From NCBI GenBank assembly GCA_937912045.1, contig CALDPI010000235.1:1-62571 (forward strand): a stretch of 62,571 nt of DNA, read 5' to 3'. This stretch comes from an uncultured Clostridia bacterium. Lineage in GTDB: Bacteria; Bacillota; Clostridia; Oscillospirales; Acutalibacteraceae. Shown piece by piece: positions 10,338 to 57,806 of the stretch. The translations under genes were made by a program, and so were the position numbers. The number at the start of each line of letters is the position of its first letter. The first letter of the stretch is position 1. The notes below the pieces were generated by a model. The model made no database searches, was not told where the DNA came from, and saw nothing but the letters and a program-made list of their open reading frames with translations.

Positions 10338-10339
10338 CG

Positions 10340-11548: not shown

Positions 11549-11549
11549 T

Positions 11550-13736: not shown

Positions 13737-13752
13737 AGTGTCTCCCTGCAAC

Positions 13753-13788
13753 AATGCCCACACCGTCCAAAAGGGCAGTGTGGGCATT
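13753..13788 (-). other. Intercistronic 11-bp perfect hairpin between the two GH78-like genes
   Basis: aatgcccacac (13753-13763) pairs with gtgtgggcatt (13778-13788) around a 14-nt loop. There is no U-tract on the coding (minus) strand. Confidence 0.5.
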
Positions 13789-13792
13789 TGTT

Positions 13793-15733: not shown

Positions 15734-15746
15734 AAATTGCACCTCT

Positions 15747-19475: not shown

Positions 19476-19514
19476 AATATCACCTGTTTCTTTGCGGTAA
19501 ATTCGCTTTATAAA

Positions 19515-19542
19515 TATGTGACAGGGCGTATGCCCTGTCACA
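19515..19542 (-). other. Perfect 12-bp hairpin just downstream of the SBP gene
   Basis: atgtgacagggc-gtat-gccctgtcacat. On the minus strand it is followed by ATTTAT, so it could be an attenuator or an mRNA-stabilising 3' structure. Confidence 0.6.
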
Positions 19543-25062: not shown

Positions 25063-25078
25063 CTTTGACCTCCTGCAG

Positions 25079-27206: not shown

Positions 27207-28067
27207 CTATCCCTTAATGCCCGAGCTGCTCATTGTCTTGGTAACACTCGACTGAGAAATGAGATAAACAGTTGTCGGGAACAGAAGCATTATAACCGAT
27301 GCCGCCATTGTACTGCCCTGACGGGTAATACCAGCGGAAGAAATCTGCTCTATAATATTGGGAAGCAACTTTATGTCCTCGTCGAAAATCATTGAAGACG
27401 AGCTCGTTGCCCATAAATCTCTGAACGCGAACAAAACGAGTGTCAGCACGGCAGGACGAATAAGCGGCAGTGCAATCTTGAAATAGATTGTGAAGCAGTT
27501 TGCGCCGTCGATTTTAGCTGCCTCCATCAAAACGTCGGGAATACTGCTGTCCATATACTGTTTAAGCAGGAAAACACCGAGTGTTGACGGTATGTAGGGC
27601 AAAATATATACGAGATAAGTGTTAAGAATCTTAAGCTCTGACATAATTACATACTGCGGAATTGCAAGTGTGTAGGTATTGAAAAGCAGAGCCATCTGAA
27701 CGAGTGCAAAAATGAGTGTATATGCCTTGTGGTGATATTTTGAAAGCGTAAATGCCGCCATGGAGGCAACAAAGACGTGCAGCATTGTCGTAACAACGCT
27801 GACGAAAACGCTGTTGATGATATATCTTGAAAACGGAACCCACTCGGTCGATAACAACTGCGGTAACGCCAGATAGTTTTCAACTGTTGGCGACACAACG
27901 TAAAACTTTGGTGGGAATGCCATGATTTCATCCAAAGGCTTTAATGATGTAACAATAAGATATACAAGCGGCAAAAGCATGAATGCGCCGAACACCGTCA
28001 AAAATATTGCAATGACTGCGGTGCCGAACTTTGAACGCGTATATCTTTTTACCTGATTACGTGCCAT
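27207..28067 (-). CDS. Carbohydrate ABC transporter permease
   Basis: Polytopic, with the EAA loop IPDVLMEAAKIDGANCFTIYFKIALP. Confidence 0.92.
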   Translation of the reverse strand: MARNQVKRYTRSKFGTAVIAIFLTVFGAFMLLPLVYLIVTSLKPLDEIMAFPPKFYVVSPTVENYLALPQLLSTEWVPFSRYIINSVFVSVVTTMLHVFVASMAAFTLSKYHHKAYTLIFALVQMALLFNTYTLAIPQYVIMSELKILNTYLVYILPYIPSTLGVFLLKQYMDSSIPDVLMEAAKIDGANCFTIYFKIALPLIRPAVLTLVLFAFRDLWATSSSSMIFDEDIKLLPNIIEQISSAGITRQGSTMAASVIMLLFPTTVYLISQSSVTKTMSSSGIKG

Positions 28068-28102
28068 AAGTGTTAAACCTTTCCCTTCAATTAATCCAAT
28101 TA

Positions 28103-29005
28103 CTATTTATCAAGCGTATTAAGCAGTTTTCCTATTACATATCTTGTAATTGCCATAAGGGCAAACAGGAAGACCGCTATTGCCGAGGCATAACCCATTT
28201 CGTACCTGACAGTACCGTAGTCTGCCATATGGGTAACGATGGTGTGGGTTATATAGTTAGTACTCGGATTACCGGTAAGGGCTGTTGCAACAGAACTGAC
28301 AGAGAATGCCGCCTGAATCTGCATAACAGCAGAGAAAAGCAGTATGCTCTTCATCGAGGGCAGGGTTATATACCAAACCTCCTGCCAACGATTGCGGATA
28401 CCCTCAATCGCGCCAACCTCGTAAAGCTCGCTTCCGACATTCTGAAGACCCGAAATGTTGGCAAGGAACGAGGTTCCCATACTCATCCACAACTGGACTA
28501 TCATAACAATCGGCAGTGCATAGGCCTCTTCCTTGAGCCAAATAATCGGCTCGGTTATGAAGCCATACTCAAGCAGGAAACCGTTTATGAGACCATAGCT
28601 GTCGCCGCTGAATATAAACAGCCAGATGAAATACACGTTTCCGACAAGCGCGGGCGAATAGAAAACGAAGGAAACAACCGCTCTTGCAACGCGCGGAAGC
28701 TCGTTTATGAACCACGCAAGCAGGAAAGCAAACGCGTATCCGAGAGGACCTGTTATAACAGCGAAAATAAGGGTGTTTTTGAGTGCGATTTTAAAAATAT
28801 CATCGTACAAAAACAGTCTTATGTAGTTCTGCACACCGTTAAACGTCGGCAGATTGAGCATATCAAAGGTTGTAAAGCTCAGCACCACCGATGAAAGAAT
28901 CGGCAAAACGGTGAACAGGAAAAACAGCGCCAAAAAGGGCGTTAAAAGTAACGTAGGCTGAAGAAAGCTTTCGCTTCTGTAGCGTTTTTTAAGTTTCGAT
29001 TTCAC
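28103..29005 (-). CDS. Sugar ABC transporter permease
   Basis: Polytopic, with the loop VGSELYEVGAIEGIRNRWQEVWYITLP. Confidence 0.92.
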   Translation of the reverse strand: MKSKLKKRYRSESFLQPTLLLTPFLALFFLFTVLPILSSVVLSFTTFDMLNLPTFNGVQNYIRLFLYDDIFKIALKNTLIFAVITGPLGYAFAFLLAWFINELPRVARAVVSFVFYSPALVGNVYFIWLFIFSGDSYGLINGFLLEYGFITEPIIWLKEEAYALPIVMIVQLWMSMGTSFLANISGLQNVGSELYEVGAIEGIRNRWQEVWYITLPSMKSILLFSAVMQIQAAFSVSSVATALTGNPSTNYITHTIVTHMADYGTVRYEMGYASAIAVFLFALMAITRYVIGKLLNTLDK

Positions 29006-29017
29006 TTGCTTTCCCTC

Positions 29018-31825
29018 CTACTTATTTACGGAATATTCTTTGCTCTTTCTTTCCATTTCTTCATCTATCATAAGCGCCCACTTGGTAAGAGCATCCTTGG
29101 GTGCTTCGCCATCACTGTAAACGGCATAAAATGCGTTTTCGAGTGAACGAGTTACATAGTAGCTTCCCGGAACCTCGGGTATAAATTCTGCGAGTTTATA
29201 CTGCTCAAGTATAACCTTTGCGTCGTCTCTGCTCCAAGACAGCTGCTGCAGAGCGTTTACGTTTGCTGTGGGCACACGTGCGGCAATACCAACAATCGAC
29301 TCAACGTCCGAGCTGTATCTGTACTGAACGTCGGCGCTGGTCCACCATTTGAGGAACTCCCACGCCTCTTTGGGCGAGTCGGTATCCTTGAGTATTACCG
29401 TCGCGGTCGAGGTGCCGATTGTCTTGTTGTTAAGACCGTCCTTACCTTCAAAGCCCGGAAGCTGATGCACGCTCCAACGGCCGCTGATTTCGGGTGCCGC
29501 CGCCATAAGCGTAGCATAGGTTGTGTAAGGCTCAATGCCCAGCGGCATTTCACCCGTACGGAAACGGTTGTAAAGGCTGAAAGCTACGGGCAGCTTGTAT
29601 TCAACGTACAAATCCGTATAGAAGTTAAATGCATCAAACGCCTCTGCGGTATCAAGGTTGGTTCTTGAAAGGTCGTCCGTATAGAGTGTTCCGCTCTTCT
29701 GATAAAGGAAGGTTCTATAGTTCTGCGGAACGCCCACAGAAAGATTATTTCTCATAAGCACCGCGCAGCAACGCAAAAACTCGTCCCACGTTTTCGGCAC
29801 AGAAATTTCAAACTGTTCAAAAATATCGTCTCTGACGTACATCATATTAAAGGTGATGCTGTCGGCAAGGCCGTAAACGCCACCCTTATATCTGAATGGG
29901 TTGATGGGCTTATCGCTGCCGTAGTTTGCTTGCAGTGTTTCTTCAAAATCCTCAAACTGTGACAAATCATAAAGTGCTCCACGCATTGCAAGGTTAACGG
30001 GTGTGTCATTGCTCTGCATAATGGTGCAGTCAGGCGCATTGCCCGAAAGCTTTGCCTGAATTATTGATGCTGCAGCAATTTTTATGTTGACCTTTATGCC
30101 TGTTTTGGGTGTAAAGCTATCCTCGACCATTTTCTGAAGAACTCTTGACTGGTCGCGGCCGATGTTTACCCAAACGTCGATAACACCCTCGCCCTCTGCC
30201 GTGGAAAGTGAGTTATAGTCAACAATATATGAGGCAAGAAGCTTGTTAAAGCCGAAGACAAATCTTTCAATAAAGTTGGACTTGTACTGCTTGGCGTCAA
30301 CGCTTTCTCCACCTATTATTATCTTTTCAATGTCGAGCGGCATCTTGCGCATTTCGTAAATCCATGCGCCTGCACTACTGTAGTTATTGAAAAGGTCACT
30401 TACGTATTTATGTGCCTTGAACTTCGATTCCAGCATACGCTCGAGAACGAGTGCAAGACTTTCAAGGGTGACGGCATTAGAGCCGCCCTTTGCGCCGGTA
30501 ATGGCGTTATATTCTTTAACCAAACCGTCGATTTCCTCGATATAGCTCTTAAGGTCATCATTAAGAGTAGGAATTTGGTCGTAAAGACGGTAGTCGCGGT
30601 TGGCATCGGGGGTGGTACCCGTAATCATAATTATCTGGCGATACATTTCGCCTACATTATATATAAGTGTCTCAAGTCTGCGGCTGATATCCGCAACGGA
30701 GCCTAAGGTAGCCTTAAGAGAAATGGTGTGCGGACCCTCTTTGAGATAGACATAATAGGGGGTCTCGCCGCCAAAGGTGAGAAGGTTCCACTTGGTGCTG
30801 TAGGGGAACTTGATTTCACTTGCCTCTGCAAACGGGGTTTCCCCGTCTATTTGCAGACTTCTGATTGCACTGGCATTGGTAAGATAACCCTGCTTATATT
30901 TGAAGGTTATGCTATAATATGCATCCTTTGGCGCATTGAATTCCCAGGTGATTCTCTCGCCTGCGGCATCCCAGTTGCTGCCGCCGATGCAGTTAATTGA
31001 GGTGTGGTATGCGCTTGACGGATTGAGCGACGGGTCTGTGCCGTCTGCCAGGGGACGAAGCTCCTTAGAGCTTTTATCTTTTGCCTCCTGCGCTTCAATT
31101 ACAACGTCGGCTCCGTCATAAATGTCTGATGCGTCTTCGGCTGAATACGCGGGGGTCTTCACAGCGCCCGAAAGTGTGATGGATTCAAGCGCAATTGTGC
31201 CCGAATAAAGCTCGATTGTGATGGTGTTTGCACCTTTTGCGAATGCGAACTTAAGCGGCTCTAAATAAAGCTCGTCGGGGTCAATCAGCTTTTCTGACAC
31301 CCATTTTGGCAGCTGTATCTGAGTGGGGCTGGACTGATTTCCGAGGGCATCCTCTGTGGGCTTTCCTTCGTCAACCCAAACGCGCGGCAGGAACATGCTG
31401 TCTGCCTCCGCGAAGGGCTCTGTGCCGTTGATTTTGCAGGAAAGCTCTATTTTTGATTCGCTGTTGTCAACAGCGGCATAGTTAAGTGCGATGTTGTAAA
31501 GCGCAGCTGTCTCACAATTAACGTTAAAGGAAACAGGGCCGCTTTCTGAATCTATAATAAGGACGTTGTCCTTATCGCAATATGAACCAAGCTTTGCGCT
31601 TGAGCCCTCTGTGGCAACGAAACCTGACGCATCTATTTTCATAGATGCGCCGGTATAATCGTTTTTGCCTTCGAGGTAATCGATGTATCCGCTGCCGGCT
31701 GTAGCGGCGGCAGCGGTTGGATTGATGTCAGACACCGTGTCAGCAGAGCATATGACCTGCGAAAACAGTGTTGTTATCAAAGATATAATTAAAACTGTGC
31801 AAGTGAACTTTGAAACGTATTTCAA
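29018..31825 (-). CDS. Oversized extracellular solute-binding protein (N-terminal ~520-aa CBM-like/helical extension + family-1 SBP body)
   Basis: The track ORF starts at 31840 (TTG). That TTG lies inside a GGGAGG sequence which sits 7 nt before the TTG at 31825, so 31825 is the more likely start. N-terminal signal/TM. The C-terminal ~400 aa are SBP-like (IDVWVNIGRDQSRVLQKMVEDSFTPKTGIKVNI...). Confidence 0.78.
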   Translation of the reverse strand: MKYVSKFTCTVLIISLITTLFSQVICSADTVSDINPTAAAATAGSGYIDYLEGKNDYTGASMKIDASGFVATEGSSAKLGSYCDKDNVLIIDSESGPVSFNVNCETAALYNIALNYAAVDNSESKIELSCKINGTEPFAEADSMFLPRVWVDEGKPTEDALGNQSSPTQIQLPKWVSEKLIDPDELYLEPLKFAFAKGANTITIELYSGTIALESITLSGAVKTPAYSAEDASDIYDGADVVIEAQEAKDKSSKELRPLADGTDPSLNPSSAYHTSINCIGGSNWDAAGERITWEFNAPKDAYYSITFKYKQGYLTNASAIRSLQIDGETPFAEASEIKFPYSTKWNLLTFGGETPYYVYLKEGPHTISLKATLGSVADISRRLETLIYNVGEMYRQIIMITGTTPDANRDYRLYDQIPTLNDDLKSYIEEIDGLVKEYNAITGAKGGSNAVTLESLALVLERMLESKFKAHKYVSDLFNNYSSAGAWIYEMRKMPLDIEKIIIGGESVDAKQYKSNFIERFVFGFNKLLASYIVDYNSLSTAEGEGVIDVWVNIGRDQSRVLQKMVEDSFTPKTGIKVNIKIAAASIIQAKLSGNAPDCTIMQSNDTPVNLAMRGALYDLSQFEDFEETLQANYGSDKPINPFRYKGGVYGLADSITFNMMYVRDDIFEQFEISVPKTWDEFLRCCAVLMRNNLSVGVPQNYRTFLYQKSGTLYTDDLSRTNLDTAEAFDAFNFYTDLYVEYKLPVAFSLYNRFRTGEMPLGIEPYTTYATLMAAAPEISGRWSVHQLPGFEGKDGLNNKTIGTSTATVILKDTDSPKEAWEFLKWWTSADVQYRYSSDVESIVGIAARVPTANVNALQQLSWSRDDAKVILEQYKLAEFIPEVPGSYYVTRSLENAFYAVYSDGEAPKDALTKWALMIDEEMERKSKEYSVNK

Positions 31826-31875
31826 AATTATACCTCCCAAATTAAGTGCCTGACATCAATAAAACTCATTTTGCT

Positions 31876-34800
31876 TTACTGAGCAGTTTGTTCTTTTTTC
31901 CTTTTCTTCTTCACAAGGAAGATGATAAGGAAGGTGATTGCGGCGAGTACAACAACCGCAAGGGCAATCATCAAAATGATGAACCAGGTTGCAAGTCGAA
32001 CAGGGGTGCCCTTCTTCTTGTACTTCTGTACAACCTTCTTGGTTGTTTCCTCGGTTTCGTCGTCGTCATCGTCGTCAGAATCGGTGTCATCTACGTAGTC
32101 GTCATCCGAATCGGTGTCTTCAACGACGTCGTCCTTCTTTTCTTCCTCGTCCTTCTGGAGGCCGTCTGTTCCAAGAACAGTATCAGCGAAGGTGAGGCCG
32201 CCCTTAGGCATATCCTCTGCAAGAGTGAGAGCATAACCGTTTTCTGCTTCGAAAAGACGGAACTTATCGAATACGGCTTCACCGTCCTTATCGTACATTG
32301 CGAAGGAAACTTCACTTTCCGCATAAGTCTTGAAGCTGATGGAAACAAGAGTCCATTCACCGCGGTTTATAGAAACATCCTGCGGGGTGCTGATGAACGC
32401 GCGCGGATTCTTGAGTGAAACAATACCGAACTTCGCGCTTTCGCCGTTGAGAGTTCTGTACCAGAACGAGAATGTGTATGACTTGTTAGCCTCAAGCTTA
32501 ACGGTGGGAAGGAAGTAATAACCCCAATTTGAGCCCTTATAGTGAAGCATCTTGTTGCCTTCACTGGTTACAACCTCGACAAATTTGCCCATACCGTTGA
32601 AGTCCTTCCAGAACTCTGTTCCCTTATCGAACATACCGTTCTTAATCAGGTTGTCAGATTCGTCGCAGGCAAATTTTGCTTCGTCGTAGTTGTAGGTGTC
32701 AATATCGGTGATGTTTACGCTTTCCTTCGCAGGCTTAGCGTCGGCGGTTTCGAAAATCTTGATATCGTCGAAGTACATTTCGCCCTTGATGCCCTGGATA
32801 AAGAAGTAAACCTCTGTGTTATCCTCGGTATTGAACTGATATGTACGGTTGTACCAAGTACCGTCGGGATACTTAATAGTGATTTCCTGCTTGGACGAGC
32901 CATCGCGTGTCCATTCGCTTGTTTCATAAGTCGACTTCGGATTTTCGAAAGGAAGCAGGTTCATATCCATAATACCGAAATGAACGTGCGGAACGACTGT
33001 ATCCGAATAGCCCATGCCGTAAAGGCTTAAATAATAGGTGGTGTTGGGCTTAACAGTTATTTTCTTAACGAAAAGGCCCTGGCCGCTTACCTTAAGCGAA
33101 GTGTTGCCATCATATTTTTCCTCTGTTGTGATGGTTGCAAAGCCTGTGGAATCTGCCCAGTAGGTTGCATTATCACAAGCAGCGTTTGTAATGAGGTTCT
33201 TTGCGGGGTCGCAAATTTGGTTTGCAAATTCTCTTCTGAGACCGAAGCCCGAAGGTGCAAAGCCTCTGTTAATTTTGTCATTTCTGACATAATCCAGATA
33301 GTACTTAGCGCAGAGCGAAACGTAGGTTTCGTTCTTGGTTGCGGTACTGAGAACAGGACTTACGAGTCCGCGCCACATATCATATTTTGAATCATAAACG
33401 CCATCCGCGCCGAATACCTTTGCAGCAACGTCTACAATCGCCGAGTTGAGAACGCCGATTCTGTAGCTGTCGATAACCGCAGCAGCCGCTGCGACGTCGT
33501 CGGGTAATGCGTGGATTGTAAGACCGTCAACGTAGATTGCCTTTCCTGCGGAAAGCACGCTTGTATCAAACTCGATAAAGTTTGCATAGTCGCCTGCGTT
33601 GATAATGGCAGTAACCTTGGTCCAGCCGTTATTATTAGCAGCCGTCTTAATGGTGCGTGTCGATACGCCGTTGCTTACGAGGTCGGCGGTTACCTTGTCT
33701 GCCGACTGGAAGCCTGCGGTCTTAACCCAGTATGTGACGAGATAGTAGTTACCATAGGAAACTGCAGGCAATGTAATCTTGCCGTTCTGTGCAGTAACCT
33801 CAAACACCTTAGAGCCGTACTTTGCAGAAGAATTTGCGGTGCCGCTCTGCTCGAACGAGCCGTCAGTTGCAAGGTTGCCTTCAAGGCCAAACTCATATCC
33901 GTCAACGGCGGGTGTTGTGGCGGCGGTGGTCTTCTTGTAAAGAATCTTGCCTGCCTCAAGGCACTCTGCGCCATATGCAGACTCAAGCTTGTAAACGGCA
34001 ATATCGTCTACATAGCCCTTTGTCTGAGAGTATAAGCTGAGGTTAGGCTCAGAGAAGGTGGAAGCACCTGTGTAGATGAGCATGGTTACTCTCTGCCAGG
34101 AGTTCTTGCTGCCGAATATGCCGTATCTTATGTTAAGGTTTGCGCCTGTTGAGGACTGGAAGCGCATTTCTGCATCGTTTCCTTCAACCTTAATCCAGAA
34201 GGTAACAGCATAGTAGGAGCTGGGCTCCATCTTGGGTAGCGGTATGCAGTAGTTTTGAACTTCGCTGCCCGGCAGTACGATAGCACCCGAGCCGTCGTTT
34301 GTGTGCGAAACCGTGGTATCATTACTCAAAATTCCGCGTGCCTTGGGGCTGAACCACATATTCGGCTTGGTAGCACCTGCATTAAACTGCTGATACTTGT
34401 TAACCGCCTTGCCCCAAATTGCGTTTGCGTTTGCAACGCCGGAGCCTGTGGTTTCGTTCTGATAATATGCCTTATAGGTGCCGTCTGGGTTAAATTCCTT
34501 AACCGTCGGGTCGGGAACAAGGTTGGTTCCGAGTGTAGACCAATCTAAATCAGAATAGTCATAAATTGTTTCGCCCTTGGTTGCGTTCTTATAAACGGCA
34601 ACAAACTCGGGGTCAACAGGCGGGTCAGGCTCCTTAGCGGGTGCCTGTGTCGGGTCAACGCCGTCAGCAACCAGCTTGCCTGCGGTGAGGCACTGGAGTG
34701 CATACTCATCATTTGTCAGCTTGTAAACAGCAACATCGTCAACAAAGCCAACAGAGTTGTTGTAAATTTCGATGAACGGGTCTGCATGTGTCTTGTCAGC

Positions 34801-37413
34801 CATGTAAACCAAGAAGGTTACACGCTTCCAGTTCTGCGAATCAAACTTGCTATAGTTTGTTTCGATGGCCATCTGGTCGCTGCCACCCGCGGTCTTATAC
34901 AAGCGGATGTTGTGATTTTTGCTCGAAACAAACTTAACCCAGAAGGTAATAACGTAGGTGTTGTTTGCCTCCATCTTGGGCAACGGTAAGCGGTAGTTGA
35001 ACTGATTCTTCTTCATTATAATCGCGCCGGAGCCGTCATCTGTGTGAGAATACTTTGTCTCACTTGTGAGCGCGCCGTTCGGCTTCGCACCACCGTAGTT
35101 AGTCAGACCGCTTGCATTCGTATGGAATGCCTGCCAGTTGTTAGCAGCTCTGCCCCACCAAGCGTTTTCGTTGGCAACGCCTGTGCCTGCGGCTTCATCA
35201 GCATAGTATGCCTTGTATGTGCCGTCAGCGTTAAACTCCTTAACTGTCGGGTCGGTGATGAGGTTTGTGCCGAGAGAAGTCCAATCAACATTACCGTCAT
35301 AGAGATACGGCCAGTTGCTTGAGTTTAAGGTTACGTCCTTATACGTTGCAGTAGCCGGGAAAGTAGGTCTTTGAATATTTTCAATAAGTTTGCTTTCGTC
35401 AATGCACTGCTTTGTATATGCATCATCAAGGGGCTGAACGTTGATATCGTCAATGACAGCGCCTGTGCTGCTGAGATAAATTCTCATAGAATAGTTGGAA
35501 GCAGCGTTTTCACCTGTGTAGTAGAACCAGGTGACTCTCTGCCAGCCCTTAGAATAAGAGGTCTGTTTCTTAGAGAGCTCTGCAAGACTTCCGTTAAAGA
35601 TTTGGGTGGTCAGGGTCGAATCGGCAGCCAGGTTAACCCAGGCAGAAATTACATAACCCTTCTTTGCCTCCATCTTGGGCAGCGGCAGATAAACCTGCTG
35701 CTCGCCGCTTGAGGGCATTGTGATAACACCGGAATTATCCGCGGTGTGTGAAAGTGCGCTGTTGTTAGAGAGAAGGCCGCGAGCCTTGGGGCTCTTATAA
35801 ACGTTAACGTTAGCAGAAAACGCCTGATATTTGTTAACGGCCTTGCCCCACCAAGCATTTGCATTGGCAACGTCTGTGCCTGTGGCTTCATCAACATAGT
35901 ATGCCTTGTAGGTGTTGCCGTCGAATTCCTTAACAGTCGGGTCGGTAACGATTGTTGCGCCGAACTGTGCGAAATCAACATACTTAGTGTCGGCAGGTAA
36001 TACGTTGAATATCTTGCTTTCGTTGGGGAGCTCAACAGGCGGTGTTGCAGGCGGGGTCAGAGCGATAAGCTCTTTTGCTGCAACACTCTTGCCGCCGACG
36101 CCTGAGGACAGCTTGTAAACTGCGAAGTCGTCAGCATAAACTGTGCCGTTGTTGGACAACAGATAAAGACCTGTGCCGTGCGTGCCGTCGCAGTTGTTAC
36201 CGCCGATAGACTTGCTTCCGTAATAAAGAATGTAAGAAACACGTGTCCATTCGCCATTCGGATTAACGTTATAAGCATCCTTGAATTCCTTATTCCAGGA
36301 GAGATGATGTCTGATGTTTACCGTCGAATCAGCCTTAATCCAATAGGTTACAAGATAGTAAGAATACTCTTCTGCCTTGCTGTTGGTAAGACGGATTGTG
36401 CGTGAGCTTGAATCGTTAATTTCATACTTAAGCACGCCCGAGCCATCGTTTGTGTGTGATGCGGCAGTGTCAAGTGTGGGTGCGTTAAGCGCAGCAGGTG
36501 TTTGCCACATTGTAGCCGTCTGGCCGCTCAAAACAGTTCTCGAATAAACTGCATTAGGTGCAGTTGAAGCATCATAGGTCTTGTATGACGTGCCGCTGAA
36601 CTCCTTAACGGTCGGGTCGGCTGCAAGGTTCTCACCGAGAGCGGTAAAGTCATAACCGTCGGGGATTGCAACATCCGTCATAGCAGGGTCCGTTGCCGAT
36701 GCATAGGTTATATCATCGGGTGAAAAGAGTTTGCCCGCAGCAACAGATTTTTCAGCAGCAGCGGTATCCATCTTATAAACTGCAAAATCGTCAAAATATG
36801 CGGTGCCTGCCTGTATATATCCACCCATATTCATAGCCGTTGCATATGAGCCGGAATATACAATATAGGAAACGCGTGTCCAATCAGTTGCACCTGTAAC
36901 GATCGTAATCGATGCATCACCGGAAGGAATCTGGTTATAGCTGAAATAATGTCTTAACTGCAGTTGGGGTCCCTTGTAATAGAAGGTTACAAGATAATAT
37001 GTGTGTTGCTCAGAATTAGGAGCAACGCGGAAAAGACGGTGATTCGCACCTGATAAGGTGTACTTTAACGCACCGCTACCATCCTGTGTGTGTGAATCGG
37101 CGGTGGCAGAGGAATATGCTTCGTACACTGCAGGTGAACCCCACATGTCTTTATTTGTATTGGTGACACCTCCAACACCACGTATACCTGTTGTTGTATC
37201 ATAAACTCCACCAGTGAATTTTGATACGTTAGAATCATACGCAAGGTTGGTGCCGAGGGCATCAAGGTCAAAACCGTCTGCAATGCTGACAAGCTTTGCA
37301 CTTGGTGTGTCAGATGCCGTTTCTGCATTTGTTAAAAGGCCAAGAGAGCCTACAAGCACCGTAAGCGCCAGCACAACAGACAATATTCTGCCTAATTGTT
37401 TTTTAATAATCAT
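31876..37413 (-). CDS. Giant (1845 aa) secreted, C-terminally membrane-anchored multi-module putative glycan-binding surface protein
   Basis: GAGGT SD and signal peptide ...LLTNA/ET. Five long modules plus three shorter CBM_4_9-like modules (NLIKNGMFD-type starts). An acidic spacer, a TM helix and a KKKRKK tail follow. Confidence 0.85.
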   Translation of the reverse strand: MIIKKQLGRILSVVLALTVLVGSLGLLTNAETASDTPSAKLVSIADGFDLDALGTNLAYDSNVSKFTGGVYDTTTGIRGVGGVTNTNKDMWGSPAVYEAYSSATADSHTQDGSGALKYTLSGANHRLFRVAPNSEQHTYYLVTFYYKGPQLQLRHYFSYNQIPSGDASITIVTGATDWTRVSYIVYSGSYATAMNMGGYIQAGTAYFDDFAVYKMDTAAAEKSVAAGKLFSPDDITYASATDPAMTDVAIPDGYDFTALGENLAADPTVKEFSGTSYKTYDASTAPNAVYSRTVLSGQTATMWQTPAALNAPTLDTAASHTNDGSGVLKYEINDSSSRTIRLTNSKAEEYSYYLVTYWIKADSTVNIRHHLSWNKEFKDAYNVNPNGEWTRVSYILYYGSKSIGGNNCDGTHGTGLYLLSNNGTVYADDFAVYKLSSGVGGKSVAAKELIALTPPATPPVELPNESKIFNVLPADTKYVDFAQFGATIVTDPTVKEFDGNTYKAYYVDEATGTDVANANAWWGKAVNKYQAFSANVNVYKSPKARGLLSNNSALSHTADNSGVITMPSSGEQQVYLPLPKMEAKKGYVISAWVNLAADSTLTTQIFNGSLAELSKKQTSYSKGWQRVTWFYYTGENAASNYSMRIYLSSTGAVIDDINVQPLDDAYTKQCIDESKLIENIQRPTFPATATYKDVTLNSSNWPYLYDGNVDWTSLGTNLITDPTVKEFNADGTYKAYYADEAAGTGVANENAWWGRAANNWQAFHTNASGLTNYGGAKPNGALTSETKYSHTDDGSGAIIMKKNQFNYRLPLPKMEANNTYVITFWVKFVSSKNHNIRLYKTAGGSDQMAIETNYSKFDSQNWKRVTFLVYMADKTHADPFIEIYNNSVGFVDDVAVYKLTNDEYALQCLTAGKLVADGVDPTQAPAKEPDPPVDPEFVAVYKNATKGETIYDYSDLDWSTLGTNLVPDPTVKEFNPDGTYKAYYQNETTGSGVANANAIWGKAVNKYQQFNAGATKPNMWFSPKARGILSNDTTVSHTNDGSGAIVLPGSEVQNYCIPLPKMEPSSYYAVTFWIKVEGNDAEMRFQSSTGANLNIRYGIFGSKNSWQRVTMLIYTGASTFSEPNLSLYSQTKGYVDDIAVYKLESAYGAECLEAGKILYKKTTAATTPAVDGYEFGLEGNLATDGSFEQSGTANSSAKYGSKVFEVTAQNGKITLPAVSYGNYYLVTYWVKTAGFQSADKVTADLVSNGVSTRTIKTAANNNGWTKVTAIINAGDYANFIEFDTSVLSAGKAIYVDGLTIHALPDDVAAAAAVIDSYRIGVLNSAIVDVAAKVFGADGVYDSKYDMWRGLVSPVLSTATKNETYVSLCAKYYLDYVRNDKINRGFAPSGFGLRREFANQICDPAKNLITNAACDNATYWADSTGFATITTEEKYDGNTSLKVSGQGLFVKKITVKPNTTYYLSLYGMGYSDTVVPHVHFGIMDMNLLPFENPKSTYETSEWTRDGSSKQEITIKYPDGTWYNRTYQFNTEDNTEVYFFIQGIKGEMYFDDIKIFETADAKPAKESVNITDIDTYNYDEAKFACDESDNLIKNGMFDKGTEFWKDFNGMGKFVEVVTSEGNKMLHYKGSNWGYYFLPTVKLEANKSYTFSFWYRTLNGESAKFGIVSLKNPRAFISTPQDVSINRGEWTLVSISFKTYAESEVSFAMYDKDGEAVFDKFRLFEAENGYALTLAEDMPKGGLTFADTVLGTDGLQKDEEEKKDDVVEDTDSDDDYVDDTDSDDDDDDETEETTKKVVQKYKKKGTPVRLATWFIILMIALAVVVLAAITFLIIFLVKKKRKKEQTAQ
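33943..37275 (-). repeat. Five tandem in-frame copies of a ~185-205-aa protein module (aa 47-229, 253-449, 478-676, 708-914, 955-1157)
   Basis: Each copy has the same motif order: LGxNLxxDPTVKEF ... SHTxDGSG ... (LPLPKME) ... WxRV(T/S) ... (V/F)DDxAVYKL ... C..AGKL. At the DNA level, ccttaacNgtcgggtcgg recurs near 34498, 35236, 35928 and 36602. Confidence 0.75.
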
Positions 37414-37459
37414 AATCGTTACCTCGTATCAATGAGATGATTATATATAATGAATATAT

Positions 37460-37488
37460 ATAATAGGTACCTATTTTCATATGTGCAA
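37460..37488 (-). promoter_or_regulatory. Candidate internal sigma-A promoter for the giant gene
   Basis: Minus strand: TTGCAC (37488-37483), 17-nt spacer, TATTAT (37465-37460). Confidence 0.4.
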
Positions 37489-37617
37489 GGACGGCCCGTG
37501 CCGTCGATGCGTTGCGATGGGTGTTGACGAGTGAATAGTTAACGTGTCGCGTTGCGACGGAATATAGCATTCACTCCCCCAGTCACCTTTCGGTGACAGC
37601 CCCCTCTAAGATGGGGC

Positions 37618-38013
37618 CTATTCTGACCAGGGTGACCAGCCGTCCATATTCTCCTTGTCTTTATCAGACTGGGTGGCGGTGCTTGTCACCTGGGAGCTGC
37701 TCTGTGGTTTAGAGCTGCTTTGCGGCTTTGAAGAGGACGACGGGTTTTTGGTGGTTGACGTTACGCTGCCTGTGGCGAAATCAATCGTGATGTCGGGGTT
37801 ATCAAAGGCATTGTCGTCAATCGCGTCCTCACCTTGTGTTTCCTCCGACGACGTATCCGAAGATACGCCGTCGGTATTTGTTTCGTTTTGCGATTGTGTC
37901 ACTTCGCTGTCTGCATCCGAAAGGTAAACTGCTTTATCCTTTTTGCAGGCACTCAAGCAGAGCAAAAGAGCGAAAGCGCACACAAACGCAGATATTTTTT
38001 TGAAGCTCAGCAT
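37618..38013 (-). CDS. Small low-complexity lipoprotein (Ser/Thr/Gln/Asp-rich)
   Basis: The start is most likely the ATG at 38013. This gives MLSFKKISAFVCAFALLLCLSAC with a perfect lipobox, followed by a tandem SSSKPQSSSKPQSSS. Confidence 0.8.
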   Translation of the reverse strand: MLSFKKISAFVCAFALLLCLSACKKDKAVYLSDADSEVTQSQNETNTDGVSSDTSSEETQGEDAIDDNAFDNPDITIDFATGSVTSTTKNPSSSSKPQSSSKPQSSSQVTSTATQSDKDKENMDGWSPWSE

Positions 38014-38018
38014 AGCCC

Positions 38019-38153
38019 TTAACCAACAATAAAGGGAAGTGAGGTGGTTGGTTCCTGACCGCCGTCTGCTTCGTCTTCTTCGCCTGCACACATAGCGCGG
38101 TCAGCCATCAGGCTGATAACTTCAAACTCGGGAGCATCATATATGTTTTTCAC
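38019..38153 (-). CDS. Unannotated 44-aa acidic small ORF (MKNIYDAPEFEVISLMADRAMCAGEEDEADGGQEPTTSLPFIVG)
   Basis: GTG at 38153 lies 7 nt after AAGGAGGA (38168-38161). I hand-translated 44 codons to a TAA at 38021-38019. The ORF fills 135 of the 156 nt in this gap and ends 5 nt before the lipoprotein ATG. It is below the ORF-track length cut-off. Confidence 0.5.
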   Translation of the reverse strand: MKNIYDAPEFEVISLMADRAMCAGEEDEADGGQEPTTSLPFIVG

Positions 38154-38169
38154 AATAATCTCCTCCTTC

Positions 38170-40938
38170 TTAATTACTTACGTGGTTAGAGTACTTGTCG
38201 GACTTGATTGTATTAGAGAATACCAATTCGTCGTCTGCAGTTGTAACGTATCCAACTGCGGTGTACTCTACGTCTGCAAAGTTCTGTTCAACATTGTAGA
38301 GACGTACTGCGTACTGAAGCTCTGTGTTTTCAGAGTTCTTCCACATATACTTTGTGCGGTCAACGTACATAACGGCAATAACTTCACCTGCGTTACCAAC
38401 GTTAACAGCCTCACCTGATGCAATGTTATTTGTCTTCAGGTTGTTATAAAGTATATTGAAAATCTGTTCTCTCGTATATGAGGGGAGTGTTGCGCGGAAA
38501 GCGTCGAAATCGCCACGGATTACGAGTGTTCCGTGTGATTTGGTGCTCAGATTGTCTGTAACGAGTGAGCCAAACTGAATGCCTTTATCACCCGTTATCT
38601 TTACAGACGCGCCAAACGTTCCGACAATGCCTGAGGGGTATTTGAACTGCTTATAGCTGTAAGTGTCTGCGGTCTTTGCAAAAAATTGTCCGTTGCCAAG
38701 CTTTTCTGCCATTGTACCGCCTGTGGTTGCCATTGCACCATAAGGAATAAAGTAGCCTTCATCCGGTGTGATGGTGTATGCGGTATTTGCGGTAGCCTCA
38801 ACACTTGCTGTATTACCGGCGTTTCCAAGCAATTTGCCGGCAGTCATGCATTCTGCACCATAGTAAGCGTCAATTTCATACAAGCCAATGTCGTCAACGT
38901 AGGTTTCTGATTCTGCATAAATATTAATGGCGTTTGTAGCGGCGAGGTCAGACGTTCCTGTGCGAATGAGGTATGTATATCTGTTCCAACCTGTACCAGT
39001 ATTATAAACTCGCTCCTGAGCCTTAATTGCCGCACCGCCATTTTTGAACAAAGTGAGCATTGCATTATTTTTACCGTTTTTAATCCAAAGCGTCAAAACA
39101 TAGTATGTTTTTGCTTTAAGCGTGGGCAGCGGTAAATAAAGGTTTGTACTTGTAGTAGTCTTTAAAGCACCGCTTCCATCGCCGATTGTGTGTGAATACT
39201 GGTTATCGTTTGTTATTTTGCCCGTCTGCAAGCCTGGACCAATCCAGTTGCTCCAACCGCCCCACTGTCCTTGAACGTGGCTAAAGGAGGCCGGAACAGC
39301 CCACCAAGCATTCGGGTTAGCAACGGTTGAAGTTGCGTGTGTTGAACCCATAGATGCATAATAAGTTTTGTATGTGCCGTCTTCATTGAATTCTTTAACG
39401 GTCGGGTCGGGAATGAGATTTTCTGTGAGTGTTTCGAAATCAAAATCTTCAACCGCAGTGCCTGTCATTGCAGTTGCGGTGAACGAAGCAAAATCTTCAT
39501 CTGCACGCAAATCAGTTTCCGTTAAAAGTTTACCGGCAGTTACACACTTTGAAGCATATTCAGGGTCAAGTCTGTAAACACCGAAATCGTCAAAGGCAAT
39601 TTCACAAATGTTATATGTACCAATAGCTCCTGAATGCGTTTGGTTACCGGTATAAACAATATAGGTAAATCGCTTCCAACTGGTAGAATAGTTTCCTCCC
39701 AATTCTTTCCAGTTACCGGAAGCCCAGTTTTGGGCACAAACATGACGAATGTTACAACCGGTAGAAGATGCTGTCTTGAAATAATACGTTATAAGATAAT
39801 ATGACTTTTTCTGCAGTTTTGGTGCTATTTTAAGGGTCCAGTTTTTCGTTGTGCTATACACAATTGCACCACTGCCGTCATTCGTGTGCGAAACATCGGT
39901 TTTTGCAGAATTCTGGTTTTTAGGAGAACCAAACTCGTCGGTTGTGTAACCGTCTTCGCCCGCTCTCATTCCGTTGGTATCGTCGTAAACCATTGTGCCT
40001 GTTCCATCATCAACAAACTTTGAAACGGTCGGGTCATAAGCAAGGTTTTCACCGAGATAATCAAAATCAAAGGTTTCATACTGACCTGAAGATGTAAGGT
40101 TTGTAAGTCCTACTGTGTCACTTGTTATATATTCTTCTTTTCCGTTAAGAAGTATGTTTCCTGCATCTATGCATTTCTGTGCATAATCTAAATCAACTTT
40201 ATACTGCTCGATTTCATCAACATATACTGTTTTTGTGCCAACTTCTTCTACGCAAACATAAGCACCGTATCTGTCCTTATGGTTAACAGGGTCATAGCAG
40301 TAAGCCAATGCGGTAATACGCTGCCAATCGGTAGTTGCATTAACTTCAAATACGTTATATGTTCCGCTCCAGTCGTTCTTTGTATGGAGCTTTACATTAC
40401 CGGCAGAAGATGCCTTTATCCAGAATGTGATAAGATACCAGGAATCCGCACGCATACCGCTGCCTATAGGCATATTAAGACGCTTACCTTCATAGTCGTC
40501 TTCACTTTTCGGTGTAATACATAAAGAGCCGGAGCCGTCTGCAGTGTGGGATACGTTCTTATCTATTTGTCCTCGTCTTGCGGGGCCCTTATACTCTTCT
40601 TCTCCTTTGCTATAAGCGTTGTGCTTCAGAGTCGCTTTTCCCCAATGGGCATTCGGGTTGTTTAGGCCCGTGCCGTTTGTTTCGTCTGCATAGTAGGTGT
40701 CATAGTTACCTTCACTGTCAAACTCCGCAACTGTAGAGTCGGGGATAAGGTTTTGTCCCAAAAGGCTCCAATCCATATCTTCTTCGGTTGAAGAAAGAGT
40801 CAAACGTGACATTTTACAAGTTGTCGGAAGTGTTGCCGTTGCATCCTCCGCATTTGCCACTGCGCCGGTGCAGAAAACTGCCGACAGGAGCATTGCGAGG
40901 GTGAGTGCTAAGGAAAGAATTTTGCGTGTTTTAAACAT
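38170..40938 (-). CDS. 922-aa secreted multi-module protein, paralogue of the giant protein
   Basis: Signal peptide ...GAVANA/ED and AAGGAG SD. Three long modules precede a ~220-aa C-terminal domain I cannot assign. There is no anchor. Confidence 0.85.
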   Translation of the reverse strand: MFKTRKILSLALTLAMLLSAVFCTGAVANAEDATATLPTTCKMSRLTLSSTEEDMDWSLLGQNLIPDSTVAEFDSEGNYDTYYADETNGTGLNNPNAHWGKATLKHNAYSKGEEEYKGPARRGQIDKNVSHTADGSGSLCITPKSEDDYEGKRLNMPIGSGMRADSWYLITFWIKASSAGNVKLHTKNDWSGTYNVFEVNATTDWQRITALAYCYDPVNHKDRYGAYVCVEEVGTKTVYVDEIEQYKVDLDYAQKCIDAGNILLNGKEEYITSDTVGLTNLTSSGQYETFDFDYLGENLAYDPTVSKFVDDGTGTMVYDDTNGMRAGEDGYTTDEFGSPKNQNSAKTDVSHTNDGSGAIVYSTTKNWTLKIAPKLQKKSYYLITYYFKTASSTGCNIRHVCAQNWASGNWKELGGNYSTSWKRFTYIVYTGNQTHSGAIGTYNICEIAFDDFGVYRLDPEYASKCVTAGKLLTETDLRADEDFASFTATAMTGTAVEDFDFETLTENLIPDPTVKEFNEDGTYKTYYASMGSTHATSTVANPNAWWAVPASFSHVQGQWGGWSNWIGPGLQTGKITNDNQYSHTIGDGSGALKTTTSTNLYLPLPTLKAKTYYVLTLWIKNGKNNAMLTLFKNGGAAIKAQERVYNTGTGWNRYTYLIRTGTSDLAATNAINIYAESETYVDDIGLYEIDAYYGAECMTAGKLLGNAGNTASVEATANTAYTITPDEGYFIPYGAMATTGGTMAEKLGNGQFFAKTADTYSYKQFKYPSGIVGTFGASVKITGDKGIQFGSLVTDNLSTKSHGTLVIRGDFDAFRATLPSYTREQIFNILYNNLKTNNIASGEAVNVGNAGEVIAVMYVDRTKYMWKNSENTELQYAVRLYNVEQNFADVEYTAVGYVTTADDELVFSNTIKSDKYSNHVSN
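38830..40776 (-). repeat. Three further copies of the same module (aa 55-263, 289-472, 498-703)
   Basis: LGQNLIPDSTVAEF, LGENLAYDPTVSKF and LTENLIPDPTVKEF are each followed by SHTxDGSG, WxR(I/F/Y)T, DD/DE..YK/YR/YE and C..AG(N/K)(I/L)L. Confidence 0.75.
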
Positions 40939-40965: not shown

Positions 40966-42960
40966 TTACTTCGCAGTTTCGAAGAGATAAACGTCGTCGA
41001 TGTACCAATCTATTCTCGATTCAGGCTCGTTCTGCTGAGCGCCGCCGTGCCATGCATAGAACATGAGACGTGTGTCGGTTATGTCGCCGCTGTTGAACTT
41101 AACAGTGTGACGTACCCAATCGCCGTGCTTGTTTTTATCAAGCGGACGAATTCTGCCCACAAGGCTGTTCACCTTGTTTCCCGGGTCGGCGTCCGAATTT
41201 TCGGCGTAGTCTGTCAGGAACGCAATTATCGAGTTCCAATAGCCCTCGACCTCGTCATACTTATAATAGAAGGTGAAAGTATAGTCTGTGTTGGGCTTGA
41301 GTGTTACTCCCTGATGGAGCTTGGTAATCTGATATACAGAGCCCTTGCCCGAATGTGCAGCCTCACCGTTTCTATAGTGGGTCATATCATATTCGGATTT
41401 AGTCTGGTTGCAGATTATCCAGCCGTCAACGCCGTCGCCTATTGAGCCGTCGACGTTGCTGCGAATCTTGAGGGGGCCGTTTTCAAAGCCACCGTTTTTA
41501 ATGAGGTTGTCTTCCTCCCCACAGGTGACGATATCTGCTGTGAGAGAAATGGTTTCCGAGGTTGCGGTTTTGCCGTCAGCATCGGCTGCAACTGCACGAT
41601 AATGCCAGGTTTCGCCCTCCTTAACGTCGAGGTCAATCCATTCGTACATCATCGAGCCAAACTCGTAATTTTCAACTGCCTCGGGGTCGTTGGGGTCAAA
41701 GGTGAGGACCTTTTTCCAGCCCGTCTTACCGTCCTTTGAGCGCTCAACGGTGATTGCGCTGGCGCCGCGGGAGCCGAAGAAGCGGATTGCCTCACTCGTC
41801 GAGTACATAAACGTGGGAGCATCTATTCCCTCGTAGCCTGTTTTGGCATACTCGGCATCGAGCGACCAGGCGCGAACCGCCCAGGTGAACGGACGCAGAC
41901 GGTTTTTGTCATCTGTCACGCCCTGTGCGCCGCCGGGGAAGCCGTAATACCAATAGAATCCTGCCTTTACGCCGTTTTCAACAACCGTGTCAAAATAGTT
42001 GCCGAAATAAGACGTCATAAACTCGTCGGAGCGGGTGAGTGAATTACTGCTGTCGGAAATACCGAACTCACCATATACCAAAGGTTTATTAAGGAAAAGC
42101 TCACTTGTGTCGTGCGCGGGCTTGCCGTCTGAATAGAAGTCATAGCCGTAGCAGTCAAAGTCAATGTTCTTATAATATTCAAAGGTCTCATTAACACTGC
42201 CCGTTGCGCCCGCAAAGGTTGTGATGCGGGGGTTAAGCTTATGTATTGTATCGTTGACGGTAGTCATAAACTTAGAAAGGTTTTCCCAGCTTGCACCTGT
42301 CTGAATTCCCCAGCGTCCGCCGTTGGATTCAGGCTCAACAAATACGTTTGCCATTATTATATTATCGTGCTTTTTAGCCATCTCAATCACGGGGGTCAGC
42401 CAGTTGTCAACAAACATCTTGGTCTGTTTTTCATTGTGCATGAAACGGCAGAGCTCTTCATAACGGTATTTACCGTTTACATATGTGGAGCTTTCGGTGT
42501 GGTTTACGATGCCAAGGCAGAGGTAAATGCCGCACTCTTCTGCAATCTCGAACACGCGTGCAAGATTTTCTTTATAGGTCGGCTCAATGCCGATAACCTG
42601 GCATTCGCTGTCAAACAGGATGCCACCAAACTGATATGTCATCCAAAGCTGGACGATATCAAAGCCCATTGCCTTTGAGTTTTTGAAAACCTCATAGAAC
42701 ATTGCGTCGGTATAGTTAGTGGTACCATAGTTCGAAGTGATACTCTTACCGATACAGTTACCCGTCGAGTTCTGGATGAACCACGGCTGCTGAATGCCGT
42801 TTACATATCCCTTTTCCTCAACAAGCTCGTCGAAGGTTTTCCACTCCTTTTTGCCTGTCTCTGCGGCGCTGACCGTTGTCGCAGGAACGACCAAAAGAGC
42901 CATTACCGTGAGGATGGTTAACACCACGCTCACAATTCGTTGGATGTTTTTCACAATCAA
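40966..42960 (-). CDS. Secreted clan GH-A (GH5-like) glycosidase + Ig-like domain + CBM_4_9-like module
   Basis: Signal peptide ...TTVSA/AE. The catalytic region is paralogous to 18168..19475. The C-terminus begins EEDNLIKNGGFENG, a CBM_4_9-type start. The start may instead be the GTG at 42954, which is 10 nt after GGAGG. Confidence 0.8.
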   Translation of the reverse strand: MIVKNIQRIVSVVLTILTVMALLVVPATTVSAAETGKKEWKTFDELVEEKGYVNGIQQPWFIQNSTGNCIGKSITSNYGTTNYTDAMFYEVFKNSKAMGFDIVQLWMTYQFGGILFDSECQVIGIEPTYKENLARVFEIAEECGIYLCLGIVNHTESSTYVNGKYRYEELCRFMHNEKQTKMFVDNWLTPVIEMAKKHDNIIMANVFVEPESNGGRWGIQTGASWENLSKFMTTVNDTIHKLNPRITTFAGATGSVNETFEYYKNIDFDCYGYDFYSDGKPAHDTSELFLNKPLVYGEFGISDSSNSLTRSDEFMTSYFGNYFDTVVENGVKAGFYWYYGFPGGAQGVTDDKNRLRPFTWAVRAWSLDAEYAKTGYEGIDAPTFMYSTSEAIRFFGSRGASAITVERSKDGKTGWKKVLTFDPNDPEAVENYEFGSMMYEWIDLDVKEGETWHYRAVAADADGKTATSETISLTADIVTCGEEDNLIKNGGFENGPLKIRSNVDGSIGDGVDGWIICNQTKSEYDMTHYRNGEAAHSGKGSVYQITKLHQGVTLKPNTDYTFTFYYKYDEVEGYWNSIIAFLTDYAENSDADPGNKVNSLVGRIRPLDKNKHGDWVRHTVKFNSGDITDTRLMFYAWHGGAQQNEPESRIDWYIDDVYLFETAK

Positions 42961-57755: not shown

Positions 57756-57806
57756 GCACACCGAAACAACAAAAAAGGGATGCGATGCGTCCCTTTTTAT
57801 TATTTC
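57756..57806. repeat. Direct repeat copy B
   Basis: gcacaccgaaacaacaaaaaagggatgcgatgcgtccctttttattatttc. The core of 29-30 nt differs from copy A at one position. Confidence 0.7.
57777..57793 (-). terminator. Terminator of the 1024-aa gene (copy 2 of the duplicated hairpin)
   Basis: Minus strand has gggacgcatcgcatccc followed by TTTTTTGTTGTTT. Confidence 0.75.

Follow-up and report, generated by a model that had tools for sequence, protein, structure and literature searches.

Eight copies of an enlarged CBM_4_9-related module, predicted to bind glycans, in two adjacent proteins of an uncultured Acutalibacteraceae bacterium

Two adjacent genes on the minus strand of a 62,571-nucleotide stretch of DNA from an uncultured Clostridia bacterium of the family Acutalibacteraceae (contig CALDPI010000235.1, assembly GCA_937912045.1; hereafter the window, meaning this stretch at its full length) encode proteins of 1845 and 922 amino acids (aa), which between them carry eight copies of a long module. 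Judged from profile comparisons, the core of this module is a homologue of the CBM_4_9 superfamily of carbohydrate-binding modules (CBMs). We consider it probable, at about two chances in three, that the eight segments bind glycans without being catalytic, that they belong to an enlarged and undescribed CBM4/9/16/22 sub-family, and that together they form a multivalent capture array at the cell surface.

Eight modules in two adjacent proteins

The eight segments are co-linear, 189-218 aa long, and align end to end with pairwise identities of 24-43%. The two open reading frames (ORFs, from the ORF list), their signal peptides (from the translation) and the modules are listed below; unless stated otherwise, modules were delimited by alignment, hidden Markov model (HMM) and clustering, and the clades are those defined further on.

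31876-37413, minus strand: ORF of the 1845-aa protein (the giant)
37324-37413, minus strand: signal peptide of the giant
36718-37284, minus strand: giant module 1, aa 44-232, clade A, Ser in the connector
36058-36666, minus strand: giant module 2, aa 250-452, clade A, Ser in the connector
35368-35991, minus strand: giant module 3, aa 475-682, clade B
34654-35301, minus strand: giant module 4, aa 705-920, clade B, the one used for structure prediction (HMM, AlphaFold model and Foldseek)
33925-34560, minus strand: giant module 5, aa 952-1163, clade B
38170-40938, minus strand: ORF of the 922-aa protein
40852-40938, minus strand: signal peptide of the 922-aa protein (MFKTRKILSLALTLAMLLSAVFCTGAVANA)
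40135-40788, minus strand: module 1 of the 922-aa protein, aa 51-268, in a small 'first-module' group of its own, 276 bits to the module HMM
39508-40083, minus strand: module 2 of the 922-aa protein, aa 286-477, clade A, with a short insert of 42 aa
38812-39456, minus strand: module 3 of the 922-aa protein, aa 495-709, clade B, with an insert of 65 aa

An earlier interpretation of this DNA, made from its letters and translations (the sequence-only reading), had proposed eight copies with a common order of motifs, five in one protein and three in the other, and had set their limits at 33943 (residue 1157 of the giant) and 40776 (residue 55 of the 922-aa protein). Both the count and the motif order were borne out, the latter by the alignment of the eight segments. 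An HMM built on the 922-aa protein's three modules alone found all five giant modules with 84-181 bits (E 1e-27 to 1e-57), and one built from the giant modules alone found the three modules of the 922-aa protein with 130-151 bits. Shuffled controls (n=400) scored 9 bits or less with the module HMMs, and a six-frame profile scan of the window returned exactly eight full-length copies. Since the cross-protein HMMs, the shuffles and the six-frame scan agree, the repeat is not an artefact of the way in which the segments were cut. Columns D6, D17, V20, F23, the S-H-T triplet, the D, S and G that follow it, Y116, W158, R160, Y180 and D188 are invariant in all eight copies.

Each module begins with a diverged strand 1 (LGxNLxxDPTVxxF), which is followed by an ordered, loop-rich insert of variable length that is rich in Tyr, Trp and Asn. 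The canonical sandwich comes next, with the motifs SHTxDGSG, (L/I)P(L/I)PxxE-x3-YYxxTxWxK, WxRV and xDDxxVYKL, and a C-terminal amphipathic helix (YxxxCxxAGKL) links the module to the next one. The insert, taken as the gap from F23 to SHT, is 41-65 aa long in the eight copies, against 28-114 aa in the family as a whole, so that the insertion of about 50 aa described in the sequence-only reading is present and only its size needed to be refined.

Other details of that reading had to be amended. A Cys had been placed in every connector; it is found in six of the eight, and giant modules 1 and 2 have Ser instead (KSVAAGKL and KSVAAKEL). The connector Cys carries little weight, because it is not universal and because the 922-aa protein has several other Cys residues. 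The division into subtypes A and B is real and family-wide, as seen on clustering 104 modules, with the correction that the 922-aa protein's module 1 is grouped on its own and not with subtype B. The LPLPKME signature given for subtype B is exact in giant modules 3 and 4 only: giant module 5 has IPLPKME, and in the 922-aa protein module 3 reads LPLPTLK and module 1 LNMPIGSGMRA. Similarly, the IRH ascribed to subtype A reads LRH in giant module 1.

Kinship with CBM_4_9 and predicted structure

No Pfam-A or NCBIfam model covers any of the eight modules. When they were scanned singly against Pfam-A, seven gave no CBM-family match at E <= 10 (one of these seven has two unrelated chance matches at E 0.05-0.25), and giant module 4 gave a partial CBM_4_9 match of 20.2 bits, confined to residues 106-168 and below the curated gathering threshold of CBM_4_9 (PF02018), which is 25.9 bits. 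By this measure all eight fall outside Pfam CBM_4_9, and the CBM_4_9 matches of the whole giant lie in its shorter C-terminal modules. A profile search of all PDB sequences gave only partial matches (E 0.0055-0.35, with CBM70 and CBM4-2 among them), the best at E 0.0055. The earlier statement that no named family has this signature is thus upheld for Pfam, NCBIfam and the PDB, and no existing model among Pfam-A, NCBIfam and PDB sequences runs through the module from end to end.

The relationship to CBM_4_9 was seen on comparing profiles. With hhalign, the profile of the eight modules aligned to canonical CBM_4_9 modules with a probability of 97.9% (E 5e-13), and that of 104 family modules with 98.3% (E 2.6e-14); the confident part is confined to the stretch from SHT to VYKL, about 110 C-terminal residues. 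In an exhaustive search of 1.84 billion representative proteins, about 135 further proteins matched through profile positions ~80-195 only, and two of these, P0042 and P0046, were scanned and proved to be multi-CBM_4_9 proteins of the ordinary kind. SHTxDGSGA(L/I) aligns to the canonical HxGxxSLK strand, LPLPKME...YY(L/V)(I/V)T(F/Y)W(I/V)K to the canonical V.L.p(g/n)t.Y.l.fW.K hairpin, and WxRVT and (V/F)DDxxVYKL to the last canonical strands. Both the hhalign result and the core-only recovery of CBM_4_9 proteins support the proposal of the sequence-only reading that the module is a derived CBM_4_9-type jelly-roll with an insertion.

The same reading held that the canonical start had been replaced by DPTVKEF. 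The start is indeed changed, and appears diverged rather than replaced: a sixth, insert-less module directly after giant module 5 begins with LEGNLATDGSFEQ, which is midway between NLIKNGGFE and NLxxDPTVKEF. From its sequence, this module looks like an evolutionary intermediate between the canonical CBM_4_9 module and the long one. The shorter modules do start with NLIKNG(G/M)F(E/D) as had been noted, at aa 1588 of the giant and aa 485 of the neighbouring GH5-like enzyme.

CBM_4_9 (which comprises CBM4, CBM9, CBM16 and CBM22, in Pfam clan GBD) and the long module therefore share core homology, motif logic and a jelly-roll, and both occur in tandem beside glycoside hydrolases (GHs), with canonical copies present in the same neighbourhood. 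They differ in several respects. Canonical modules are compact (about 135-150 aa), with an NGxFE strand that leads straight into the sandwich, a form that the 189-218-aa modules do not have: the NGxFE start has become DPTVxxF, an ordered insert of 28-114 aa is added after strand 1, and a connector helix is added at the C-terminal end. Moreover, the long module never lacks D17 or the D of SHTxD, whereas the canonical modules compared do lack the latter.

AlphaFold predicted giant module 4 with a pLDDT (predicted local distance difference test) of 72.9 when nine sequences were used, and with a pLDDT of 88.4 and a pTM (predicted template-modelling score) of 0.88 when 28 rows were used. The better model is a confident beta-sandwich, in which residues 11-60, from strand 1 to SHT, have a pLDDT of 89-98; its insert region is ordered and poor in regular secondary structure, and a helix (residues 198-207) follows the last strand. 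The predicted structure is that of a GBD-clan, galactose-binding-domain-like beta-jelly-roll, and the module is not a new fold. Since the modules are homologous and the model of module 4 is a beta-sandwich, the eight segments are predicted to have a fold in common.

The best structural match in a Foldseek search of the PDB was CBM16 of Caldanaerobius polysaccharolyticus Man5A (PDB 2ZEX, 2ZEY, 3OEA), with E 1e-7, a root-mean-square deviation of ~3.6 A and a template-modelling score of 0.59 on the target and 0.42 on the query. About 128 of 216 residues superpose, at 16% identity, and no PDB match covers the insert or the helix; in the PDB sequence search CBM16 was not matched at E <= 10. The CBM16 of Man5A is a type-B binder of glucan and mannan chains and occurs in tandem. 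The next PDB matches were toxin receptor-binding domains, the gingipain K3 adhesin, CBM61, CBM70 and MAM; the first, lower-confidence model also matched CBM22 and CBM4-2, and in a viral structure library CenC/CBM16-like domains of tail proteins were matched. On the predicted model, therefore, about 60% of the module is the known sandwich, and about 40% (insert and helix) is without a structural counterpart in the searched libraries.

Residues Y114, T118, W120, K122, W153 and R155 were considered as a binding face and dropped: in an alignment with CBM4-2 they lie on canonical structural strands, and their co-variation follows the clades.

The family beyond the window and its probable function

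The family is very small: about 40 proteins matched the whole profile in the exhaustive search of 1.84 billion representatives, and a word-indexed search of a 5.8-billion-protein set with the module alignment as query gave one match, P0001. An exact look-up of the 922-aa protein returned no record. The members all come from metagenome assemblies, in clusters of one to four sequences, and for 20 family proteins that were looked up by cluster, neither a name nor an accession was returned. Counting both window proteins, 45 proteins supplied a non-redundant family set of 104 modules. The Asp residues at D17, in SHTxD and at the first position of DD are present in 104/104 modules, and G89, Y115, V20 and F23 are nearly invariant; the connector residue is Cys in 69 and Ser in 19 of the 104. 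The core from SHT to VYKL has a constant length, with a median of 110 aa. Clustering on the non-insert columns gave three large clades:

Clade B: 45 modules, median insert of 61 aa; giant modules 3-5 and module 3 of the 922-aa protein
Clade A: 19 modules, insert of 28-47 aa; giant modules 1-2 and module 2 of the 922-aa protein
Clade C: 18 modules, insert of 76-114 aa; no members in the window

The signature of clade C is altered at H83, T118, W120 and R155. Two clade-C-like variants (SLTDDGSG and SLTDDGTG, with YYV(V/I)KFN(M/V)K) are seen on a metagenome scaffold from ENA (L001, 103-2663, plus strand), which carries at least three family modules and is broken by a run of N; its protein ends in a dockerin-like EF-hand pair, and gene calling retained just the final 326 aa.

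The modules always stand in tandem directly after the signal peptide, at the N-terminal end. On scanning 41 family proteins, we observed Dockerin_1 in 14, Cohesin in three, additional CBM_4_9 modules in six and a GDSL esterase in one; a glycoside-hydrolase family was matched in 0/41. Three classes of architecture can be distinguished, namely giant-like proteins with a transmembrane (TM) anchor, proteins that end like the 922-aa protein in a domain of ~210 aa, and the 14 dockerin-bearing proteins, three of which also have cohesin. P0026 and P0036 are made up of modules, cohesin and dockerin. In these two and in P0047, clade-C modules with 100-aa inserts are borne by proteins of the cohesin and dockerin adaptor type; in the organisms concerned the module appears, from this domain order, to be the targeting element of a scaffoldin.

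A three-module alignment found a single locus among the GTDB species representatives, in a metagenome-assembled genome of the Acutalibacteraceae, and the same query found no loci in JGI metagenomes; the taxonomic spread of the family is poorly sampled. The matched genome has an ortholog of the giant (65% identity), followed by homologs of the window ORFs 18168-19541 and 17188-18168 (L002, 4585-6818).

From the kinship, the architectures and the gene neighbourhood we infer that the modules bind carbohydrate. They would be displayed at the distal N-terminal end of the membrane-tethered giant and on the co-encoded, secreted 922-aa protein, and would hold a complex polysaccharide at the cell surface by multivalent and possibly, through clades A and B, multi-specific binding. 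The adjacent GH5-like endo-enzyme would then cut the captured polymer, and the adjacent ABC (ATP-binding cassette) system with its giant binding protein would import the fragments; the module genes would be co-transcribed with those of the GH5-like enzyme and the importer. In relatives, fusion to dockerin, or to cohesin and dockerin, would let the modules target the substrate for cellulosome-like complexes. The conserved aromatic residues of the insert, Y29, Y32, W48 and W49, presumably belong to the binding surface, and the three invariant Asp (D17, that of SHTxD and the first of DD) would serve as metal or structural ligands. A hypervariable insert on a constant core is, we suggest, what would be expected of specificity-determining loops, and, since the insert is rich in aromatics and each protein holds two clades, several specificities or sub-sites are suggested. 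The ligand may be an acetylated, rhamnose-containing heteropolysaccharide, because three rhamnosidase genes and four esterase genes lie nearby.

A number of points weigh against this interpretation. Carbohydrate binding is a prediction for every member of the family, as is the lining of a cleft by the aromatic residues, and the candidate ligand is suggested by the neighbouring genes only. The most conserved motifs (LPLPxxE...YYxxTxWxK, WxRV and DDxxVY) form the canonical CBM_4_9 structural core in the alignment with CBM4-2, and therefore their conservation alone marks no ligand site. The co-varying residues H83, T118, W120, W153, R155 and Y33 track the clade boundaries, so that the co-variation may be purely phylogenetic. 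Foldseek, in addition, matched binders of proteins and receptors, namely iota-toxin Ib, the receptor-binding domain of CDTb, the gingipain K3 adhesin and MAM.

This last observation opens up the alternative that the modules are adhesins or receptor-binding modules for a protein, a host or the surface of a partner cell, such as mucin protein cores or another bacterium. The same fold does bind receptors in the four proteins just named, phage tail proteins match structurally, and the giant exposes a long tandem array on a membrane anchor. Cohesin-dockerin systems directed at host mucin have also been described in Acutalibacteraceae (PMC12997984), which would fit such a role. However, the best structural and profile matches are to true CBMs, and the genes lie within a sugar-utilisation block (the GH5-like enzyme, two ABC sugar importers, rhamnosidases and esterases); if mucin glycans were the ligand, the modules would still be CBMs. 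We regard a role as adhesins as unlikely. A mainly structural role, in which the modules serve as a rigid spacer or stalk, or as a scaffold for oligomerisation, and the binding is left to the canonical CBM_4_9 modules, seems to us somewhat less probable again. It would agree with the strong conservation of core positions, with the canonical CBM_4_9 modules present in the giant, and with the conserved C-terminal helix, which could form a stiff joint between modules. Against it, the anchor of the giant is C-terminal, which makes the long modules the most distal and leaves the canonical CBMs nearer to the membrane, the opposite of a stalk. The dockerin-bearing relatives, too, consist of little beyond these modules, which must hence be their functional cargo, and an insert that is ordered, rich in aromatic residues and hypervariable in length suits recognition better than spacing.

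Some jelly-roll families are catalytic, and three Asp residues that are invariant in 104/104 modules, beside a Ser-His-Thr motif, could be taken for the acidic residues of a cryptic hydrolase or lyase. A Ser-His-Asp 'triad' was rejected on the variation of its His: the His of SHT is Leu or Arg in 29/104 modules. The last invariant Asp occupies the canonical CBM_4_9 'DD' position, and the structural neighbours are all binding domains. To our knowledge, moreover, eight tandem catalytic domains would be unprecedented, and we consider an enzymatic role very improbable.

Returning to glycan binding, the comparison with Pfam, NCBIfam and the PDB makes it plausible that the module represents a new CAZy CBM family or sub-family. 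A further-reaching version, which we offer as a tentative proposal and think less likely to be right than wrong, is that it founds a new CBM family. In it, the aromatic-rich and possibly metal-stabilised sub-domain on the CBM4/16/22 sandwich would create a new binding site for a complex glycan that contains rhamnose or is unusual in another way, and clades A, B and C would differ in specificity. Uncultured gut bacteria of the Acutalibacteraceae type would have in the module their principal means of targeting substrates, mounted interchangeably on membrane anchors, on the 210-aa domain and on scaffolds with dockerin or cohesin.

Non-catalytic CBM proteins of the cellulosome and adaptor scaffoldins of the Ruminococcus type offer a parallel, as relatives in the family likewise combine a signal peptide and modules with a type I dockerin (14/41) or with cohesin and dockerin. 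The two window proteins differ from these in using a TM anchor and a ~210-aa domain and in having no dockerin or cohesin in the Pfam scan, and their module differs in belonging to no CBM family of solved structure that is detectable by sequence search.

If binding proves true, uncultured gut Oscillospirales would have yielded a new CBM family or sub-family, and with it a natural series of specificity variants, with three clades and inserts of 28-114 residues on a constant core, accompanied by three modes of surface attachment. The family would help to annotate large 'hypothetical' surface and cellulosomal proteins that are left blank in databases, and could hint at the substrate of this locus, in which the key enzymes are uncharacterised (a GH5-like enzyme without a structural relative, and DUF5696). 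Nothing is overturned by it, since CBMs are already known with this fold, tandem layout and genomic logic.

Other parts of the two proteins and the gene neighbourhood

Beyond the eight modules, the two proteins contain the following:

33487-33840, minus strand: insert-less sixth module of the giant, aa ~1192-1309, 33 bits at profile positions 78-196 (core only)
32734-33216, minus strand: CBM-like module of the giant, aa ~1400-1560, starting with NLITNA and common to many family proteins
32227-32652, minus strand: canonical CBM_4_9 module of the giant, Pfam match at aa 1588-1698 with an envelope to ~1729, 54.3 bits
31912-31995, minus strand: C-terminal TM anchor of the giant, preceded by an acidic linker and followed by KKKRKK (translation)
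38173-38811, minus strand: C-terminal ~210-aa domain of the 922-aa protein, aa 710-922, without a family match (family alignment)

The anchor alters one more point of the sequence-only reading, which had taken both proteins as secreted: the giant is not freely secreted, as its translation ends in a TM helix and KKKRKK that tether it to the membrane. This anchor tail is kept in P0002, P0004, P0006, P0011, P0012, P0016 and P0037. The ~210-aa domain gave no match in Pfam or PDB searches; nine other family proteins end in the same conserved domain, with identities of 49-57% (96% in P0005, the ortholog), and it sits where relatives carry a dockerin or a TM anchor. From this position it may be a new domain for surface attachment or complex assembly.

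The two genes belong to a minus-strand block of tightly spaced genes at ~27-43 kb of the window (ORF and domain scan), whose order is GH5-like enzyme with CBM_4_9, 922-aa protein, lipoprotein, giant, 940-aa solute-binding protein and two permeases. Further along this strand are the genes of a Yip1/NHL membrane protein and a DUF5696 protein, those of a second ABC system, three ORFs that match nothing in Pfam, and two rhamnosidase (GH78) and four esterase genes. A divergent AraC regulator gene lies upstream of the block, and genes for GH3, GH2 and GH106 lie beyond it. Between the genes of the block an intergenic scan found no terminator-like sites; scanning for promoters and terminators was uninformative, with counts at or below shuffle expectation. 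The genes that flank the two module proteins are:

40966-42960, minus strand: secreted, very divergent GH5-like enzyme with a C-terminal CBM_4_9, upstream of the 922-aa gene (Cellulase 25.9 bits, CBM_4_9 35.8 bits)
27207-31840, minus strand: downstream genes for the 940-aa solute-binding protein and two ABC permeases (domain scan)

A PDB sequence search with the GH5-like enzyme found no relative at E<0.01. The 940-aa protein (29018-31840, minus strand) is unusually large for an ABC binding protein; an N-terminal extension of ~550 aa, with faint CBM35/Golvesin-like matches, precedes its SBP_bac_1/8 domain. Between the two module proteins, a small ORF (37618-38091, minus strand) has a lipoprotein-type signal (ending in LLLCLSAC) from an internal Met, and its body is rich in Ser, Thr and Pro, of low complexity and without a family match. 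The region 22855-27193 (minus strand), between the two sets of ABC genes, encodes the DUF5696 protein (422 bits, full length), for which a literature search found no papers, and the Yip1-domain membrane protein, whose N-terminus is an NHL/beta-propeller. The region 7732-15742 (minus strand) holds the four esterases (one BD-FAE, two SGNH/GDSL and one alpha/beta hydrolase) and the two GH78 rhamnosidases, and a GH106-like protein is found further on (57800-60874, minus strand). These esterase, GH78 and GH106-like genes suggest that the region may be directed at an acetylated, rhamnose-containing substrate.

A locus for xanthan in Ruminococcaceae UCG13 has been described with an unclassified GH5 that bears tandem CBMs (bioRxiv 10.1101/2021.06.02.446819). 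The likeness to the window is one of description: both are of the gut Oscillospirales type, with a secreted GH5 outside the known subfamilies that carries CBMs, ABC importers, esterases and AraC regulators. The window differs in its accessory enzymes (GH78, GH106, GH2, GH3 and DUF5696) and in having its CBM-like modules on separate, non-catalytic proteins.

The window also contains a paralog of the GH5-like enzyme without a signal peptide and without a Pfam match (18168-19541, minus strand). The homology runs by way of an ORF of the related locus (L002 o2), which has 71% identity to this paralog and 28% to the GH5-like enzyme. The paralog is followed by a 326-aa protein (17188-18168, minus strand) that resembles the C-terminal CBM-like region of the giant.

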